Below are positions 1,614-29,522 of a stretch of DNA of 64,000 nt, piece after piece. The stretch is from Enterobacteria phage ATK47. The stretch's first letter is position 1; the number at the start of each line of letters is the position of its first letter. The notes beneath the pieces are model-generated. The model did not search any database. It was not told the DNA's origin and worked only from the letters and a program-made list of their open reading frames with translations. Location: the sequence record NC_055708.1. One strand, given 5' to 3'. Made by a program: the position numbers and the translations under genes.

Positions 1614-1846
1614 GTATAGCAATTTACATTAAATCAGAATCATGTGATAGTTATCTGTACACATATGATAAAGATGTGTCAGAAGAAAAAATCAAAGACG
1701 ACCTTAATACGGACCTTGATATGTTCTGTCCTATTGCAGATTACAAACTTGCGGTCTCTAATAGTGAAAGTCCATCTAAAGAAACGCGCATTGAAGAATT
1801 TATGTCTGAATTAATGGCCAAATCATGGGACCGAGATGATGAGTAA
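1610..1846 (+). CDS. Hypothetical acidic protein
   Basis: ATGA overlap start at 1610; ORF. Confidence 0.4.
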   Translation: MSIAIYIKSESCDSYLYTYDKDVSEEKIKDDLNTDLDMFCPIADYKLAVSNSESPSKETRIEEFMSELMAKSWDRDDE

Positions 1847-2294
1847 GAAAAATAAAGTGAAAGAGCTATCAGCCGGTATTATTTTCCTTACCGAAGATAA
1901 AGAGTTATTCATGGGGCGTGTAACTGGTTCTCGTCCTAAAGGTGCATTAACTCATCGGTGGGATATTCCTAAAGGCCGTGTCGAACCTGGCGAATCTCCT
2001 ATTGAAGCCGCTATTCGTGAATGCGAAGAAGAAACTGGGTTTACACAATATGACCCTGCCTTCCTGAAAGACCTAGGTGAACATCATTACTCAGACAATA
2101 AGAATATTCATCTGTTCCTATATACCATCCCTGTAGAGCACGAGCAATTCAGAAACAGTGTTTGTAATTCCTATCATACATTCCAAGACGGACGACAGAT
2201 TCCTGAATTTGATGCATTCGCTTTAATTAAACCTTCTCAATGGGAATATGTAATGGGCAAATCGTTATATAAGGTGCTCACTACCCTCCTATAA
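1836..2294 (+). CDS. nudE: Nudix hydrolase NudE (T4 e.1 homolog)
   Basis: Nudix box GESPIEAAIRECEEETGF; sits immediately upstream of e as in T4. Confidence 0.85.
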   Translation: MMSKKNKVKELSAGIIFLTEDKELFMGRVTGSRPKGALTHRWDIPKGRVEPGESPIEAAIRECEEETGFTQYDPAFLKDLGEHHYSDNKNIHLFLYTIPVEHEQFRNSVCNSYHTFQDGRQIPEFDAFALIKPSQWEYVMGKSLYKVLTTLL

Positions 2295-2300
2295 GTAATA

Positions 2301-2328
2301 AATACCTCCTATAAACGTGGGAGGTATT
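2301..2328 (+). promoter_or_regulatory. Hairpin sequestering the lysozyme SD (arms aatacctcc/ggaggtatt) with TATAAA-like late-promoter motif in the loop
   Basis: Perfect 9-bp inverted repeat read from sequence; 3' arm contains GGAGG just upstream of ATG 2329. Confidence 0.6.
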
Positions 2329-2817
2329 ATGAATATATTTGAAATGCTTCGTAATGACGAAGGTCTTAGACTGACTTTATACAAAGACACTGAAGGCTTT
2401 TGGACGATTGGCATAGGCCATTTAGTAACAAAGAACCCGTCTTTAGCCGTAGCTAAAGCTGAACTTGACAGAATGATCGGCCGTAAATGCAACGGTACAA
2501 TTACCCTTGATGAGGCTGAAAAGCTATTTAATGAAGACGTTGATAAAGCTGTCCGCGGAATCTTGGGTAATGCTAAACTTAAACCGGTATATGATTCTTT
2601 AGATGCAGTTCGTCGGTGTGCATTGGTCAATATGGTCTTCCAAATGGGTGTAGCAGGAGTCGCCGGTTTTACTAATTCTCTTCGTATGCTTAAACAGAAA
2701 CGTTGGGATGAAGCGGCAGTAAATCTAGCTCAATCTAAATGGTATCGTCAGACACCTAATCGCGCGAAACGCGTAATCTCAACATTTAAAACAGGAACTT
2801 GGAAAGCGTATATATGA
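2329..2817 (+). CDS. e: Endolysin (T4 lysozyme, gene e)
   Basis: MNIFEMLR...[22 protein letters not shown] closely matches T4 lysozyme as recalled; the six-frame ORF begins 12 nt upstream. Confidence 0.95.
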
Positions 2818-3095
2818 AAACATATAGTGAATTTTTATCAGAATCTATTCTTAACGAAGCTACTGACACATTTGCAACTAAGCTAGGTGCAGCTTTGGTT
2901 GAAGCTGAAAGTCTATTAGCACGTATTTCTGAACTTGCTAGTAAGATAGATACTCGCAAATTTGAACGTACCAGCGATATCGCTAAGCTTGAAGCCTTGT
3001 TGCGTATGTGCGATAAACCAGAAGAAATCGCTAAGAACGGCTCGCTGATGAAACAACGTCTTGAAAAATATATTTCAGGCGCTTCAGAAAAATAG
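2814..3095 (+). CDS. Internal (capsid-injected) protein with N-terminal capsid targeting sequence
   Basis: Starts [10 protein letters not shown], the T4 IP capsid-targeting sequence pattern with an L-x-E prohead-protease site; ATGA overlap with e stop. Confidence 0.65.
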
Positions 3096-3096
3096 T

Positions 3097-3150
3097 GTTT
3101 ACTTCCTCCAAGGGTTTTGATACTATACATTCATCAACTACTTGGAGGAA
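3097..3150 (+). promoter_or_regulatory. Early promoter (GTTTAC, TACTAT) with inverted repeat cttcctccaag/cttggaggaa covering the denV SD
   Basis: Read directly; 18-bp spacer. Confidence 0.5.
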
Positions 3151-3153
3151 ATT

Positions 3154-3567
3154 ATGACTCGTATCAATTTAACACTTGTTTCTGAACTGTCCGACCAACA
3201 TCTTATGGCTGAGTATCGTGAATTACCACGCGTATTTGGTGCAGTCCGTAAACATGTTCAAAACGGTAAACGTGTAAAGGATTTTAAAATCTCTCCAACA
3301 TTTATCTTAGGCACAGGTCACGTAACATTCTTTTACGACAAACTCGAATTTTTACGTTTACGTCAAATCGAGCTAATCGCTGAATGTTTGAAACGTGGTT
3401 TCAAAATCAAGGACACGACAGTCCAGGATATTTCCGACATCCCTGCCGAATTTCGTAATAATTATGTCCCGTCCGAAGCGTCCATTGCGATAAGTCAAGC
3501 ACGCTTAGATGAAAAAATTGCTCAACGTCCGACTTGGTACAAATACTATGGTAAATCAATTTACTAA
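3154..3567 (+). CDS. denV: Endonuclease V, pyrimidine-dimer DNA glycosylase
   Basis: [12 protein letters not shown]...[16 protein letters not shown] matches T4 endonuclease V as recalled. Confidence 0.95.
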
Positions 3568-3574
3568 GGAAAAA

Positions 3575-3904
3575 ATGAAAACATATCAAGAGTTTATCAC
3601 TGAAGTTACATTATCTGCGGAACAGAAAGCTGCTATCGAAGAAAGTAAAAATCCCAAAGTAACATATAAAGTAAATAGTAAAGGCGTTTTTGATGGCTTG
3701 GTTCAAGACCCTGAATTGAAAAAAGCTCTTTCTAAAACTAATGCGTACTTTGCTCCTAAATTTAACACAGCCGGTGTACTTATTGGATTGGATGTATTCA
3801 ACTCTAAAGGTGTTCTATCTAATGCCTTTGGCTATGCCGCTAACAAAATTACCAAAGCCGCATGGGAATCCAATACCAAACAAGCTCAAAAGCCTAGAGT
3901 ATAA
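3575..3904 (+). CDS. Internal protein (IPII/IPIII-like) with capsid targeting sequence
   Basis: Starts MKTYQEFITE (capsid-targeting sequence); start overlaps denV stop. Confidence 0.7.
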   Translation: MKTYQEFITEVTLSAEQKAAIEESKNPKVTYKVNSKGVFDGLVQDPELKKALSKTNAYFAPKFNTAGVLIGLDVFNSKGVLSNAFGYAANKITKAAWESNTKQAQKPRV

Positions 3905-4076
3905 TTCTTGTCTAATAAAGGGAAACGCAACCTCTCCTTATGAACGTCGAGTCCTCTGAGTGATGTACCTTTTCCAACCTGTAATAAGGTCGAGCGCAAT
4001 GCGGTAATGGGTTTACATAGCGAGTCGAAGGACCTAACATGTGCCACGGAATGGCCCAAACCTTAAGAGAAATAAT

Positions 4077-4616
4077 ATGAGAACATTTTTAACTGGACCT
4101 TATCTATCCCTGATGAATGCTTTTACACACCATTCTGATGCTAGAGTAGAAGAAATTTGTAAGAACGGTTATATCCCACCATTTGAAGACGTACTCAAGC
4201 AGTACTGTACACTTCGTTTAGACGGCGGCAGACAATCAGGTAAATCAATTGCTGTGACTAACTTTGCTGCTAATTGGCTGTACGATGGTGGAACAGTTAT
4301 TATTCTTTCTAATACTTCAGCTTATGCTAAAATTTCTGCTGGCAACATTGAAAAAGAATTTTCTCGTTATTCTAGCGACAATATTCGATTCCGTTTATTT
4401 ACTGATTCTGTCCGTAGTTTTATTGGCAATGAAGGTTCTAAATTCCGTGGATTAACGCTTTCTCGTATTCTGTATATAATTGACGAGCCTATTAAAGCTC
4501 CTGATATGGATAAGATTTACAATGTCCATATTAAAACAGTACAGTACTGCTGCAAAAGCAAATATTGCATCGGCGGTAATTCTCGTCCTCAATTTTTTGT
4601 GATTGGAATGCAATGA
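4077..4616 (+). CDS. Hypothetical protein (positional equivalent of the T4 vs.8-vs.3 block)
   Basis: ORF with SD; start taken at internal ATG 4077. Confidence 0.45.
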   Translation: MRTFLTGPYLSLMNAFTHHSDARVEEICKNGYIPPFEDVLKQYCTLRLDGGRQSGKSIAVTNFAANWLYDGGTVIILSNTSAYAKISAGNIEKEFSRYSSDNIRFRLFTDSVRSFIGNEGSKFRGLTLSRILYIIDEPIKAPDMDKIYNVHIKTVQYCCKSKYCIGGNSRPQFFVIGMQ

Positions 4617-4921
4617 TGACCACTATTGAAGTTTTTGAATATTGTTATAACAGCCCAGTATGCAATAAAAGGGCTCTTGTAGAAAATTATGAGATTTACC
4701 ATTTTAAACCTAAACGATATCGTTTGACTAAAGGCCCGTTCGCAGGGCAGCAGGTTCTTTGTACTGCTCCTAATGCACGGTTGATGACTAGTATTCCGCA
4801 TTTCAAAATGGAATTTATTGATGGGCCATTTAAGGGATTAATCACTCAAAGTTTAATGGCGTTTAATTCCGACCCATTTTTGATTAAAGAAAAATCTTGG
4901 ATAAATTTATTTTCTAATTGA
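4613..4921 (+). CDS. Hypothetical protein
   Basis: ATGA overlap; ORF. Confidence 0.45.
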   Translation: MMTTIEVFEYCYNSPVCNKRALVENYEIYHFKPKRYRLTKGPFAGQQVLCTAPNARLMTSIPHFKMEFIDGPFKGLITQSLMAFNSDPFLIKEKSWINLFSN

Positions 4922-26062: not shown

Positions 26063-26395
26063 ATGTCTACTAAAATCAAAAACGTAGTTAATTCTTTCGC
26101 TTTCGATAAAGTTGTTGCTCTTCTGGAATCCGGCAATATTGTTACTCCTCAAGTTCTTGACGCATGGGAATTCCGTCTTTATGAAATCATGCAAAAACAC
26201 GACCAGAAAATTGGACGTAATTCTATTCGTGAAATTCTAGTGCAATATATTCTTTCTGAATTTGACGTTGCTGCATTTGGTGTTGAATCTAAAGCTTATC
26301 AGAAACATGAAATCTCTGAAAAGACTATCCGTCGTATGAAAAATCAACGTAAGAAAAAATTCGTTGACCTGAAAATTGTTAAGGCGGTAAAATGA
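26063..26395 (+). CDS. Hypothetical protein
   Basis: ORF; start at internal ATG with SD. Confidence 0.4.
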   Translation: MSTKIKNVVNSFAFDKVVALLESGNIVTPQVLDAWEFRLYEIMQKHDQKIGRNSIREILVQYILSEFDVAAFGVESKAYQKHEISEKTIRRMKNQRKKKFVDLKIVKAVK

Positions 26396-26619
26396 GCGTA
26401 TTAACAGAAACTTTGATTAATGACCTGCGTCTAGCTGGTTACGAAGTTGGTACAAATAGTCTAGGTCTTCCTCAGATTGAAGGGCCTGGATTTATCCTAG
26501 AATATGAATTCAAACAATGGTGGTTATATGCTACGGTTGACGATGCGTTGAATATTGATTTCGTTGACCAATTTGATTCGTTGGATGCTGCTCTTGAAGC
26601 AGCAAAGGAACTAGAATGA
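26392..26619 (+). CDS. Hypothetical acidic protein
   Basis: ORF. Confidence 0.4.
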   Translation: MSVLTETLINDLRLAGYEVGTNSLGLPQIEGPGFILEYEFKQWWLYATVDDALNIDFVDQFDSLDAALEAAKELE

Positions 26620-28502: not shown

Positions 28503-29522
28503 ATGAAAATTTTGCACTTAGGAGACTTCCATATCGGAGTCAAACAAGATGACCCATGGGTTCAAGATATTCAACGTGATGGTATTCGTCAAGCAATTGA
28601 ATACTCTAAGAAACACGGGATTAAAACTTGGATTCAGTACGGTGATTGGTTCGACGTCCGTAAAGCAATAACACATCGTACAATGGAATTCAATCGTGAA
28701 ATCGTTGATATGATTTCTAAAGCAGGCATTCACGTTCATGTCACGATAGGAAACCATGACATGGCGTTTAAGAATACAATAACACCTAACACTGTTTCTG
28801 AATTGTTAACTCAATTTGAAAACTTTACTATTTACGAACATCCAACTACTGTAGATTTTGATGGATGTCTGATTGATATCGTTCCATGGATGTGTGAAGA
28901 AAATACAGGTGAAATCTTAGAGCATATCAAGACTTCTTCTGCTGCGTATTGTGTTGGGCACTGGGAACTGAATGGCTTTTATTTCTATAAAGGAATGAAG
29001 TCTCATGGGCTTGAACCTGATTTCTTAAAGACCTATAAACAAGTCTGGTCCGGCCACTTCCACACAATCTCTGAAGCTGCTAACGTCAAATATATTGGGA
29101 CACCATGGACCCTTACTGCAGGTGACGAGAACGACCCACGTGGATTCTGGGTATTTGACACTGATGTTGAACGTATGGAATTTATTCCTAATGAAACGAC
29201 ATGGCATCGACGAATCACTTATCCATTTAAAGGCAAAATCAATTATTCTGATTATACTAATCTAGCCGTACGTGTTATAGTATCAGAAATTGATTCAGAG
29301 TTGACTAAGTTTGAATCTGAACTTGAAAAAGTAGTTCACTCTCTTCGTATGGTTTCTAAAGTTGATAACAGTGTTGAATCTGATGACGACCAGGAAATCG
29401 AGATTAAATCACTTCAAGATATCATTAAAGAATATATTGACGCGATTCCAGATATCTCAGACGAAGACAGAGAAGCGCTGGTCAAATATTCCAACGAACT
29501 TTATATTGAGGCAACACAATGA
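28503..29522 (+). CDS. 47: Recombination nuclease subunit gp47 (Mre11-like)
   Basis: Phosphoesterase motifs (LHLGDFH, GNHD); T4 gp47-like. Confidence 0.95.
   Translation: MKILHLGDFHIGVKQDDPWVQDIQRDGIRQAIEYSKKHGIKTWIQYGDWFDVRKAITHRTMEFNREIVDMISKAGIHVHVTIGNHDMAFKNTITPNTVSELLTQFENFTIYEHPTTVDFDGCLIDIVPWMCEENTGEILEHIKTSSAAYCVGHWELNGFYFYKGMKSHGLEPDFLKTYKQVWSGHFHTISEAANVKYIGTPWTLTAGDENDPRGFWVFDTDVERMEFIPNETTWHRRITYPFKGKINYSDYTNLAVRVIVSEIDSELTKFESELEKVVHSLRMVSKVDNSVESDDDQEIEIKSLQDIIKEYIDAIPDISDEDREALVKYSNELYIEATQ

Follow-up and report, generated by a model that had tools for sequence, protein, structure and literature searches.

Two reading frames for putative precursors of internal head proteins, IPa and IPb, are located in the window, that is, in the whole stretch of 64,000 nucleotides that was analysed. 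The genes of this region are arranged in the order nudE (1836-2294), e (lysozyme; 2329-2817), IPa (2814-3095, plus strand), denV (3154-3567, plus strand), IPb (3575-3904, plus strand), and, after a spacer of approximately 170 nt, vs.8 (4077-4616). IPa comes directly after e and encodes a precursor of 93 amino acids, corresponding to RB69ORF127c; the precursor encoded by IPb has 109 amino acids and corresponds to RB69ORF123c. The product of denV, a pyrimidine-dimer glycosylase, matches PF03013 (Pyr_excise, E 4.8e-14) and phrog_1183 (E 3e-62). Its gene separates two internal-protein slots: one before it, occupied by IPa, and one after it, occupied by IPb. Positions 1800-4700 of the window are 100% identical to phage ATK48 (KT184310.1), a Mosigvirus of the T4 family that resembles RB69. 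The identity of the same segment to RB69 is 97.9%, apart from a length difference of 664 bp. In T4-type phages there are two variable loci for internal proteins, e-denV-vs.8 and 57B-tRNA. IPa and IPb are in the former, the same locus that holds ipIII and ipII in T4.

The start codon of IPa overlaps the stop codon of e (ATGA), and IPa is predicted to be translationally coupled to e. IPb starts 7 nt past the stop codon of denV, with an AAGGA ribosome-binding site ahead of it. Between IPa and denV, a promoter-stem-loop occupies positions 3099-3150 on the plus strand. It consists of GTTTAC (-35), the 5' arm TTCCTCCAAG, TACTAT (-10) in the loop, and the 3' arm CTTGGAGGAA, which contains the Shine-Dalgarno sequence of denV; its minimum free energy is -19.8 kcal/mol (z -3.1). 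T4 and WG01 show the same layout with another stem sequence (TCTCCTGTAG/CTACAGGAGA). A hairpin upstream of e (ATACCTCC...GGGAGGTAT) covers the Shine-Dalgarno sequence of that gene, and the one-mismatch late-promoter-like sequences TATAAGTA, AATAAATA, and TATAAACG are in this hairpin or adjoin it. The same arrangement, a hairpin over the Shine-Dalgarno sequence together with late-promoter sequences, is known for e of T4. An exact T4 late promoter (TATAAATA) was not found in 1700-4200, a scan for MotA boxes found none, and a generic scan for sigma-70 promoters and terminators gave nothing above shuffle expectation. Neither a terminator between e and IPb nor a promoter belonging to IPb itself was found here; late synthesis of IPb by read-through from the late-promoter-like sequences upstream of e is plausible.

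The spacer between IPb and vs.8 contains a further element. Just downstream of IPb, the segment 3917-4057 has a G+C content of 45%, compared with 37% for the window, and by blastn it is present in 986 phage records from at least nine Tevenvirinae genera. A core of 39 nt is also found in Vequintavirinae, beside tRNA genes. In the annotation of T4, vs.8 is extended at its N-terminus to include the equivalent stretch, but the frame is not a conserved one. The core can be written as N4-ACCUGURAHAAGGU-CGAGC-N5-6-GCGGUAA-N4, with 24 of 44 columns invariant among 35 distinct sequences; all 35 retain the closing pair, for which four pair types are used. For the "long" form of 140 nt, a five-helix model was set by hand on 14 sequences, and 95.4% of cells are paired in these 14 sequences, the same ones from which the structure was derived. 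The covariation score, which refers to the same derivation, is 0.142, compared with 0.058 in shuffles (0 of 500 reach the observed value) and at most 0.046 in slid controls. The search of Rfam gave no family at E<=1 for this element, and no tRNA was found in it. These features suggest a structured RNA or an mRNA leader, not described before, that borders the internal-protein array on its right-hand side.

Leader sequences and candidate cleavage sites

Both precursors start with a sequence of the internal-protein type, M-K-T-Y/F-x-E-F, in which residues 4 and 7 are aromatic. The capsid targeting sequence of IPa (2814-2843, plus strand) begins with MKTYSEF and ends with LSE at codons 8-10 (2835-2843); it is followed by a second L-x-E site, LNE, at codons 13-15 (2850-2858, plus strand). 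The leader of IPb, MKTYQEFITE (3575-3604, plus strand), has ITE at residues 8-10. This means that Tyr4, Phe7, Leu or Ile at position 8, and Glu10 are present in both, as is the gp21 motif L/I-x-E. Tyr4 and Phe7 are the residues for capsid targeting, and Leu/Ile8 and Glu10 those for processing (Mullaney and Black 1996, as cited in PMC9026906). A degenerate DNA pattern for the leader, applied to both strands of the 64 kb, matched exactly two sites, the starts of IPa and IPb, at a chance expectation of 0.00 (100 shuffles). A six-frame protein scan of the 64 kb returned the same two leaders and no others. The initial annotation, in which a capsid targeting sequence had been assigned to both reading frames, is borne out by these scans.

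The position of the processing site had been given there as an L/I-x-E at about residue 10. This description applies to IPb, and IPa does have LSE at residues 8-10; the family-conserved site of IPa, a candidate for cleavage by gp21, is however at residues 13-15. In an alignment of seven members of the Ip5 family, [LI]-x-E is present at 13-15 in all seven, with Glu15 invariant. At 8-10, L/I-x-E occurs only in some Mosigviruses: RB69, T2, and P0006 are without it, and PP01 and MLF4 have A-T-E at these residues. Since the site at 13-15 is conserved across the family, the propeptide of IPa probably consists of 15 residues, or else is cut twice. Cleavage after Glu15 would probably generate a mature N-terminus of ATDTF, and the LSE at 8-10 in the window represents an additional or alternative candidate site.

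In IPb of RB69, I-A-A is found in place of I-x-E, which indicates that the cleavage motif is not universally kept. The leader of IPb in the window was also considered as a chimera of RB69 ORF125c and ORF123c. This was rejected: the identical ITE leader is present on IPb of APCEc01 and NHEP11, so that the I-A-A of RB69 is the derived state.

IPa and IPb resemble IPI, IPII, and IPIII of T4 in the capsid targeting sequence, the L/I-x-E site for gp21, the small size, and the e-denV-vs.8 locus. The leader of IPb shares 9 of 10 residues with that of T4 IPII and IPIII (MKTYQEFIAE). The mature domains of IPa and IPb show no similarity to IPII or IPIII beyond residues 1-15, and BLASTP detected no similarity of either protein to Ip2 or Ip3 beyond the leader. 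Apart from the homology between IPa and Ip5, the BLASTP similarity of the two proteins to other internal proteins is confined to residues 1-13. The mature parts are also unrelated to each other, as had been proposed: an all-against-all BLASTP gave no match between IPa and IPb at E<=0.01.

Relatives of the mature domains

IPa matches phrog_3499, "internal head protein", over residues 1-87 of 93 (E 2e-46). Its identity to Ip5 of T2 is 47.6% over 84 amino acids (E 1e-21), and values of 48-52%, over the whole length as well as over the mature part, are obtained with Ip5 of T2, PP01, and many other Tequatroviruses. From these comparisons, IPa is a homolog of T2-type Ip5 and a member of the Ip5 family (phrog_3499); IPb lies outside this family. 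IPa and Ip5 of T2 and PP01 also have in common the [LI]-x-E at 13-15, whereas the LSE at 8-10 of IPa in the window is extra. Another difference is the location. In T2-type phages, ip5 is in the other locus, in the order 57B-ip5-ip7-tRNA, whereas IPa adjoins e and is directly coupled to it in every Mosigvirus locus inspected. This means that the cassette family has moved between the two loci.

At an identity of 80% or more, IPa is found in 237 phage records, which is essentially every Mosigvirus. The mature domains had been regarded as candidates for lineage-specific anti-defence functions. The anti-defence part of this proposal fits the literature described below, but IPa, being a homolog of Ip5, is not lineage-specific. 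No report on the function of Ip5 was found in the literature.

Nearly all database records label IPb "hypothetical protein"; a few others are evidently misannotated. Its sole PHROG match is phrog_3966, a family of unknown function (E 3e-32). IPb is present at 95% identity or more in 75 records, about a third of the Mosigviruses or of the records with IPa, and 13 more records contain a protein with approximately 35% identity. Dhakavirus WG01 belongs to the latter set, and its IPb homolog is likewise placed directly after denV. When the mature domain of IPb was compared with 1.84 billion representatives by exhaustive HMMER, only its own cluster (P0001) and the Dhakavirus homolog (P0011) were credible; the other nine matches were weak and mostly to long repetitive proteins. 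A word-indexed protein search returned near-identical proteins only.

Two domain assignments for IPb were rejected. The match to MBG_2 (PF18676) arose from a phmmer hit (E 1.8e-9) to a protein with 13 repeats, the score of which is the sum of repeats of approximately 4 bits each; hhalign gave a probability of 14%, and Pfam has no MBG match on IPb. A Pfam match to NUMOD1 was below threshold (E 0.15) and was discarded. By its sequence, IPb is to be regarded as an unannotated yet canonical member of the known internal-protein class.

Structure prediction, which had been suggested for both mature domains, was informative for one of them. The AlphaFold2 (AF2) single-sequence model of IPa consists of three helices (pLDDT 71.6), whereas the AF2 model of IPb is unreliable and could not be used (pLDDT 50). 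In a Foldseek comparison with BFVD and the PDB, the IPa model gave nothing at E<=1 (best E 2.1 and 2.7). Sequence searches of the PDB gave no match for IPa at E<=0.1 and none for IPb below E 0.15, and IPa has no match in Pfam.

Cassette exchange on the two sides of denV

IPa and IPb had been described as bracketing denV rather than lying together. The gene order is indeed of this kind, but it is no peculiarity of the window: RB69, APCEc01, and Dhakavirus WG01 show it as well. The e-to-vs.8 interval of ten phages was scanned for leader-bearing ORFs. The e-denV slot contains IPa in ATK48 (this window), NHEP11, RB69, APCEc01, UGJNEcP2, JK45, ZQ3, PhAPEC2, and OLB35. The denV-vs.8 slot contains IPb in ATK48; a 125c-type gene and IPb in NHEP11; 125c-type and 124c-type genes and IPb in RB69 and APCEc01; a 38-aa internally deleted 125c-type ORF, a 124c-type gene, and IPb in UGJNEcP2; a 125c-type gene in JK45; an Ip2 homolog in ZQ3; the 38-aa internally deleted 125c-type ORF and an Ip3 homolog in PhAPEC2; and a 22-codon frameshifted stub of IPb with an Ip2 homolog in OLB35. 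Homologs of T4 Ip2 and Ip3 are thus situated in the IPb slot of sister Mosigviruses. Across the genus, the slot of IPa is fixed, whereas that occupied by IPb here is variable. In T4, ipIII and ipII are both between e and denV, with none after denV, whereas the ATK48 window has one gene on each side; WG01 has two leader-bearing ORFs in each slot. As the slots on both sides of denV hold leader-bearing ORFs in other phages, bracketing of denV is the normal layout outside T4.

The stub in OLB35 and the 38-aa ORF in UGJNEcP2 and PhAPEC2 indicate that decay occurs at this locus, and the IPa leader of RB69 is scrambled by a compensated double frameshift. One or both of the ORFs in the window might likewise be decaying or non-functional leftovers of shuffling that retain a relic leader. 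We consider this very improbable. More than 230 records contain an intact IPa with 97-100% identity, and, besides 48-52% identity to Tequatrovirus Ip5, the protein has 32 columns invariant with Ip5 of T2, PP01, and MLF4. IPb is intact in 75 records; between it and its positional counterpart in Dhakavirus, a homolog with 35% identity, 31 columns are invariant.

The alignment of the window with RB69 consists of two pieces, which overlap at 3567-3605 (plus strand). This overlap is a module comprising the ribosome-binding site, the ATG, and the leader, and it matches the start of ORF125c as well as that of ORF123c. On the 5' side of the ATG the sequence is the denV-proximal module, as found before the 125c-type gene in APCEc01 and NHEP11, whereas from codon 3 onward it is of the IPb type. 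This combination points to a deletion within the repeated module: compared with the RB69/APCEc01-type arrays, the single-cassette layout of the window is the product of recombination inside the RBS-ATG-leader repeat. A second 5' module, identical among phages (tggtataat...caaggaaacaaaaATG + leader; ...tggtataattactctatcaaaacaaacaaggaaacaaaaATG + leader), precedes four mature domains in different phages: the 124c-type, IPb, Ip2, and Ip3.

A probe of 241 nt spanning the 3' end of denV and the 5' end of IPb was compared with phage records by megablast, and 192 records matched. The probe was contiguous, or contained a short insertion, in 23 of them and was split over two places in 53. In most of the others, the homology ended at probe position 136, which corresponds to window position 3605 at the last leader codon, and past this position a different mature domain was substituted.

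Such exchange agrees with the promoter/stem-loop-mediated shuffling reported for hyperplastic regions of T4-type phages (PMC2839356) and with the elements at both internal-protein loci attributed to Repoila et al. 1994 in the same article. As far as these elements and the PeSL elements are described in PMC2839356, they share with the present locus conserved 5' modules, variable small genes, and recombination that deletes or swaps cassettes. Unlike in PeSL elements, the repeat here reaches into the coding sequence, since the homology includes the 30 nt of the leader, and the junction lies between the ribosome-binding site and the leader. Recombination in T4 works on short homologies (PMC2839356, PMC8262927).

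Proposed packaging and function

IPa and IPb probably both belong, as cassettes, to the T4-type internal protein system, and would act in the following way. Both would be made as precursors and docked into the scaffolding core of the prohead by the leader M-K-T-Y-x-E-F-L/I-x-E. The gp21 protease would then remove the leader after the Glu of L/I-x-E: after E10 in IPb, and after E15, possibly also after E10, in IPa. The mature proteins (about 8.6-9.2 kDa for IPa and 10.7 kDa for IPb) would remain in the head with the DNA, be co-injected with it, and act ahead of any phage gene expression. Most likely, they would serve as stoichiometric inhibitors of those modification-dependent nucleases (type IV, GmrSD/BrxU-like) by which the arabinosylated DNA of the genus is attacked. 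Homologous recombination within the conserved module of promoter, RBS, and leader would account for exchange, duplication, and deletion of the slot contents.

The record of ATK48 annotates the gp21 protease and the scaffold-core proteins gp22, gp67, and gp68 at 164.9-167.1 kb, outside the window, and it also contains gp20 and inh. As these are encoded by ATK48, the cognate machinery for assembly and processing is present. Further leader-bearing ORFs, at least three in number, are present in the other internal-protein locus of ATK48, also outside the window; they include an Ip1 homolog and two ORFs that lack annotation, of which one is Ip7-like and the other 154 aa long. A literature search found no virion proteomics or N-terminal data for IPa and IPb of Mosigvirus, nor for RB69ORF127c and RB69ORF123c.

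An anti-restriction action of some internal proteins had been put forward in the initial annotation, and this is in accordance with T4, in which Ip1, Ip2, and Ip3 each inhibit a distinct GmrSD type IV enzyme and do not protect against the enzymes of the others (PMC12373910). On ECOR17, Ip3 is needed, and leaderless Ip3 supplied in the host also works (PMC9391042). The authors of PMC12373910 suggested that all cassettes of both loci target variants of the GmrSD family and that the loci represent an inhibitor hotspot. As Ip1-3 of T4 are all GmrSD inhibitors, and as the IPb slot has Ip2 and Ip3 homologs among its alleles, our best guess is an anti-restriction role for IPb, and probably for IPa, as injected inhibitors of modification-dependent nucleases.

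A correction concerns the hosts proposed for plating, those with restriction systems specific for hmC. The DNA of Mosigviruses contains arabinosylated 5-hydroxycytosine, not glucosyl-hmC (PMC13390438, PMC13326640), so that the enzymes to be considered are the ones able to act on DNA modified in this way, not strictly hmC-specific ones. Mosigviruses are restricted by BrxU, which cuts their DNA (PMC13390438, PMC13326640), and RB69 is restricted by GmrSD enzymes (PMC6024577). It is conceivable, as a tentative proposal, that IPb and/or IPa inhibit an undescribed subtype of modification-dependent nuclease that recognises DNA with arabinosylated 5-hydroxycytosine.

No link to a known nuclease inhibitor was found, either in sequence (PDB, both proteins) or in fold (Foldseek, IPa model). 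This missing similarity makes it less probable that the two proteins are homologs of Ip1-3; it does not make it less probable that they work like Ip1-3. It could be argued that, with mature domains unrelated to Ip1-3 and to any solved structure, the injected proteins counteract defences other than type IV enzymes, such as other nucleases of the first response, sensors of abortive infection, or the superinfection exclusion that competing phages exert. The known targets, moreover, are those of only 3 of more than 30 internal-protein variants (PMC2839356, PMC12373910). This alternative seems rather unlikely to us: a single enzyme family is the target of all three cassettes characterised at these loci, the place of IPb is taken by Ip2 and Ip3 homologs in other phages, and it has been argued that the two loci are a hotspot at which inhibitors of one immune family are gathered (PMC12373910).

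The charge of the mature proteins bears on another explanation, in which the packaged proteins have a structural role as DNA counter-ions or core components aiding condensation or ejection, with no specific target in the host. Mature IPb (99 aa) is basic, with a pI of 9.7 and 15 Lys and Arg residues against 8 Asp and Glu residues, and a T4 head contains approximately 1000 molecules of internal protein, which lie within the packaged DNA (PMC3012670). Mature IPa, however, is near neutral (pI 6.3-8.1), and all three internal proteins of T4 have specific nuclease targets (PMC12373910). In addition, IPb is missing in about two-thirds of otherwise near-identical Mosigviruses, which have unrelated cassettes instead. 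Such loss and replacement are more readily explained by an arms race than by a structural requirement, and we regard a purely structural role as improbable.

A comparable mode of action, as injected inhibitors of restriction, is known from phage P1, in which DarA, DarB, and Hdf are located inside the head, are co-injected with the DNA, and act against restriction (PMC12810830). The likeness is limited to the mode of action: the Dar proteins are unrelated in sequence to IPa and IPb, are larger, are directed against type I restriction-modification, and are incorporated by another pathway.

The locus, the leader, and the shuffling have been described before, and the concept of the internal protein system is therefore unchanged by the present analysis. 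The placement of IPb among the injected-protein cassettes matters because database records label it "hypothetical". Internal proteins are at work before the phage expresses its first gene, and in T4 each of the three disables a type IV restriction enzyme of its own. Such systems partly determine the host range of RB69-group phages on wild E. coli, and these phages are components of therapy cocktails. The map of the cassettes that follow denV in each phage provides a short list of candidates for pairing with variants of GmrSD and BrxU. If IPb or IPa does inhibit a nuclease subtype directed at arabinosylated 5-hydroxycytosine, the pairing of Ip1-3 with GmrSD enzymes would be extended to another DNA hypermodification, and a new inhibitor fold would be added.

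A conserved non-coding element ahead of vs.8

The spacer between IPb, one of the two predicted internal head protein genes on either side of denV, and vs.8 contains a non-coding element (3917-4057, core 3977-4007), which is G+C-rich (45% versus 37% for the window). The element is present in 986 phage records across the Tevenvirinae, and its 39-nt core is shared with the Vequintavirinae and with metagenomic phage contigs. Conservation does not extend to the reading frame. The helices covary: 95% of the positions were paired, and the covariation was 0.142 versus 0.058 in shuffled alignments, as scored with a model set by hand on the same 14 sequences. No match to the element was found in Rfam at E≤1. 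A GCCA/UGGC hairpin and an AUG are present in its 3' part, along with a GGA that resembles an SD sequence. In addition, a short ORF of 13 codons (MCHGMAQTLREII, 4039-4080) overlaps the vs.8 start through the ATGA at its end. The element is considered to be a candidate for a new structured RNA or leader.

In T4, vs.8 (219 aa) is annotated with 40 additional codons ahead of the conserved start, MRTFLTG, and this extension (2291-2413 of the T4 locus) runs into the element. Its counterpart in the window (3905-4076) contains stops and is split over two frames. Because the equivalent region is broken in this way, the T4 extension is probably an annotation artefact, or is real in the last 15 codons only.

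Hairpins over Shine-Dalgarno sequences

The Shine-Dalgarno sequence of the lysozyme gene e lies under a hairpin at 2291-2328 (ATACCTCC TATAAACGT GGGAGGTAT), which is a terminator in the ATK48 annotation. Octamers resembling late promoters, with one mismatch each (TATAAGTA, AATAAATA, TATAAACG), are located within and ahead of this hairpin.

Upstream of denV, a 10-bp hairpin is combined with a promoter (3099-3150). Of the early-promoter-like elements, GTTTAC (-35) lies just before the hairpin and TACTAT (-10) in its loop, and the 3' arm contains the Shine-Dalgarno sequence of denV. The Shine-Dalgarno sequence would be masked in transcripts coming from upstream and free in those begun inside the hairpin. 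The same architecture is seen before denV in T4 and WG01, with a different stem sequence.

Variation among internal protein genes

When RB69 IPa (ORF127c, 2515-2560 of its locus) is compared with the window (2814-2860), a compensated -1/+1 double frameshift is observed over codons 5-12, yielding MKTYMNFYQNLSLNE. As a result, the candidate cleavage site at 8-10 is lost; Tyr4, Phe7, and the LNE at 13-15 are retained. RB69 IPb has I-A-A at the position of I-T-E in the window. These leader differences are either true changes in the laboratory strain or errors in the 2003 sequence.

Cassettes in decay were found at the internal-protein locus of three other phages. OLB35 has a frameshifted IPb stub of 22 codons (L012 2305-2373) ahead of an Ip2 homolog, and UGJNEcP2 and PhAPEC2 have an internally deleted 125c-type ORF of 38 aa (L008 1905-2021 and L009 2305-2421, respectively).

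Two further leader-bearing ORFs, both lacking annotation in the ATK48 record, lie outside the window in the other internal-protein region of that phage (L088). One is Ip7-like (102 aa; L088 4126-4434, ATK48 about 26125-26433) and adjoins an Ip1 homolog; the other (MKSYAEFLTE..., 154 aa; L088 6841-7305, ATK48 about 28840-29304) is between rnaC and frd.3. ATK48 therefore has at least five candidate internal proteins.
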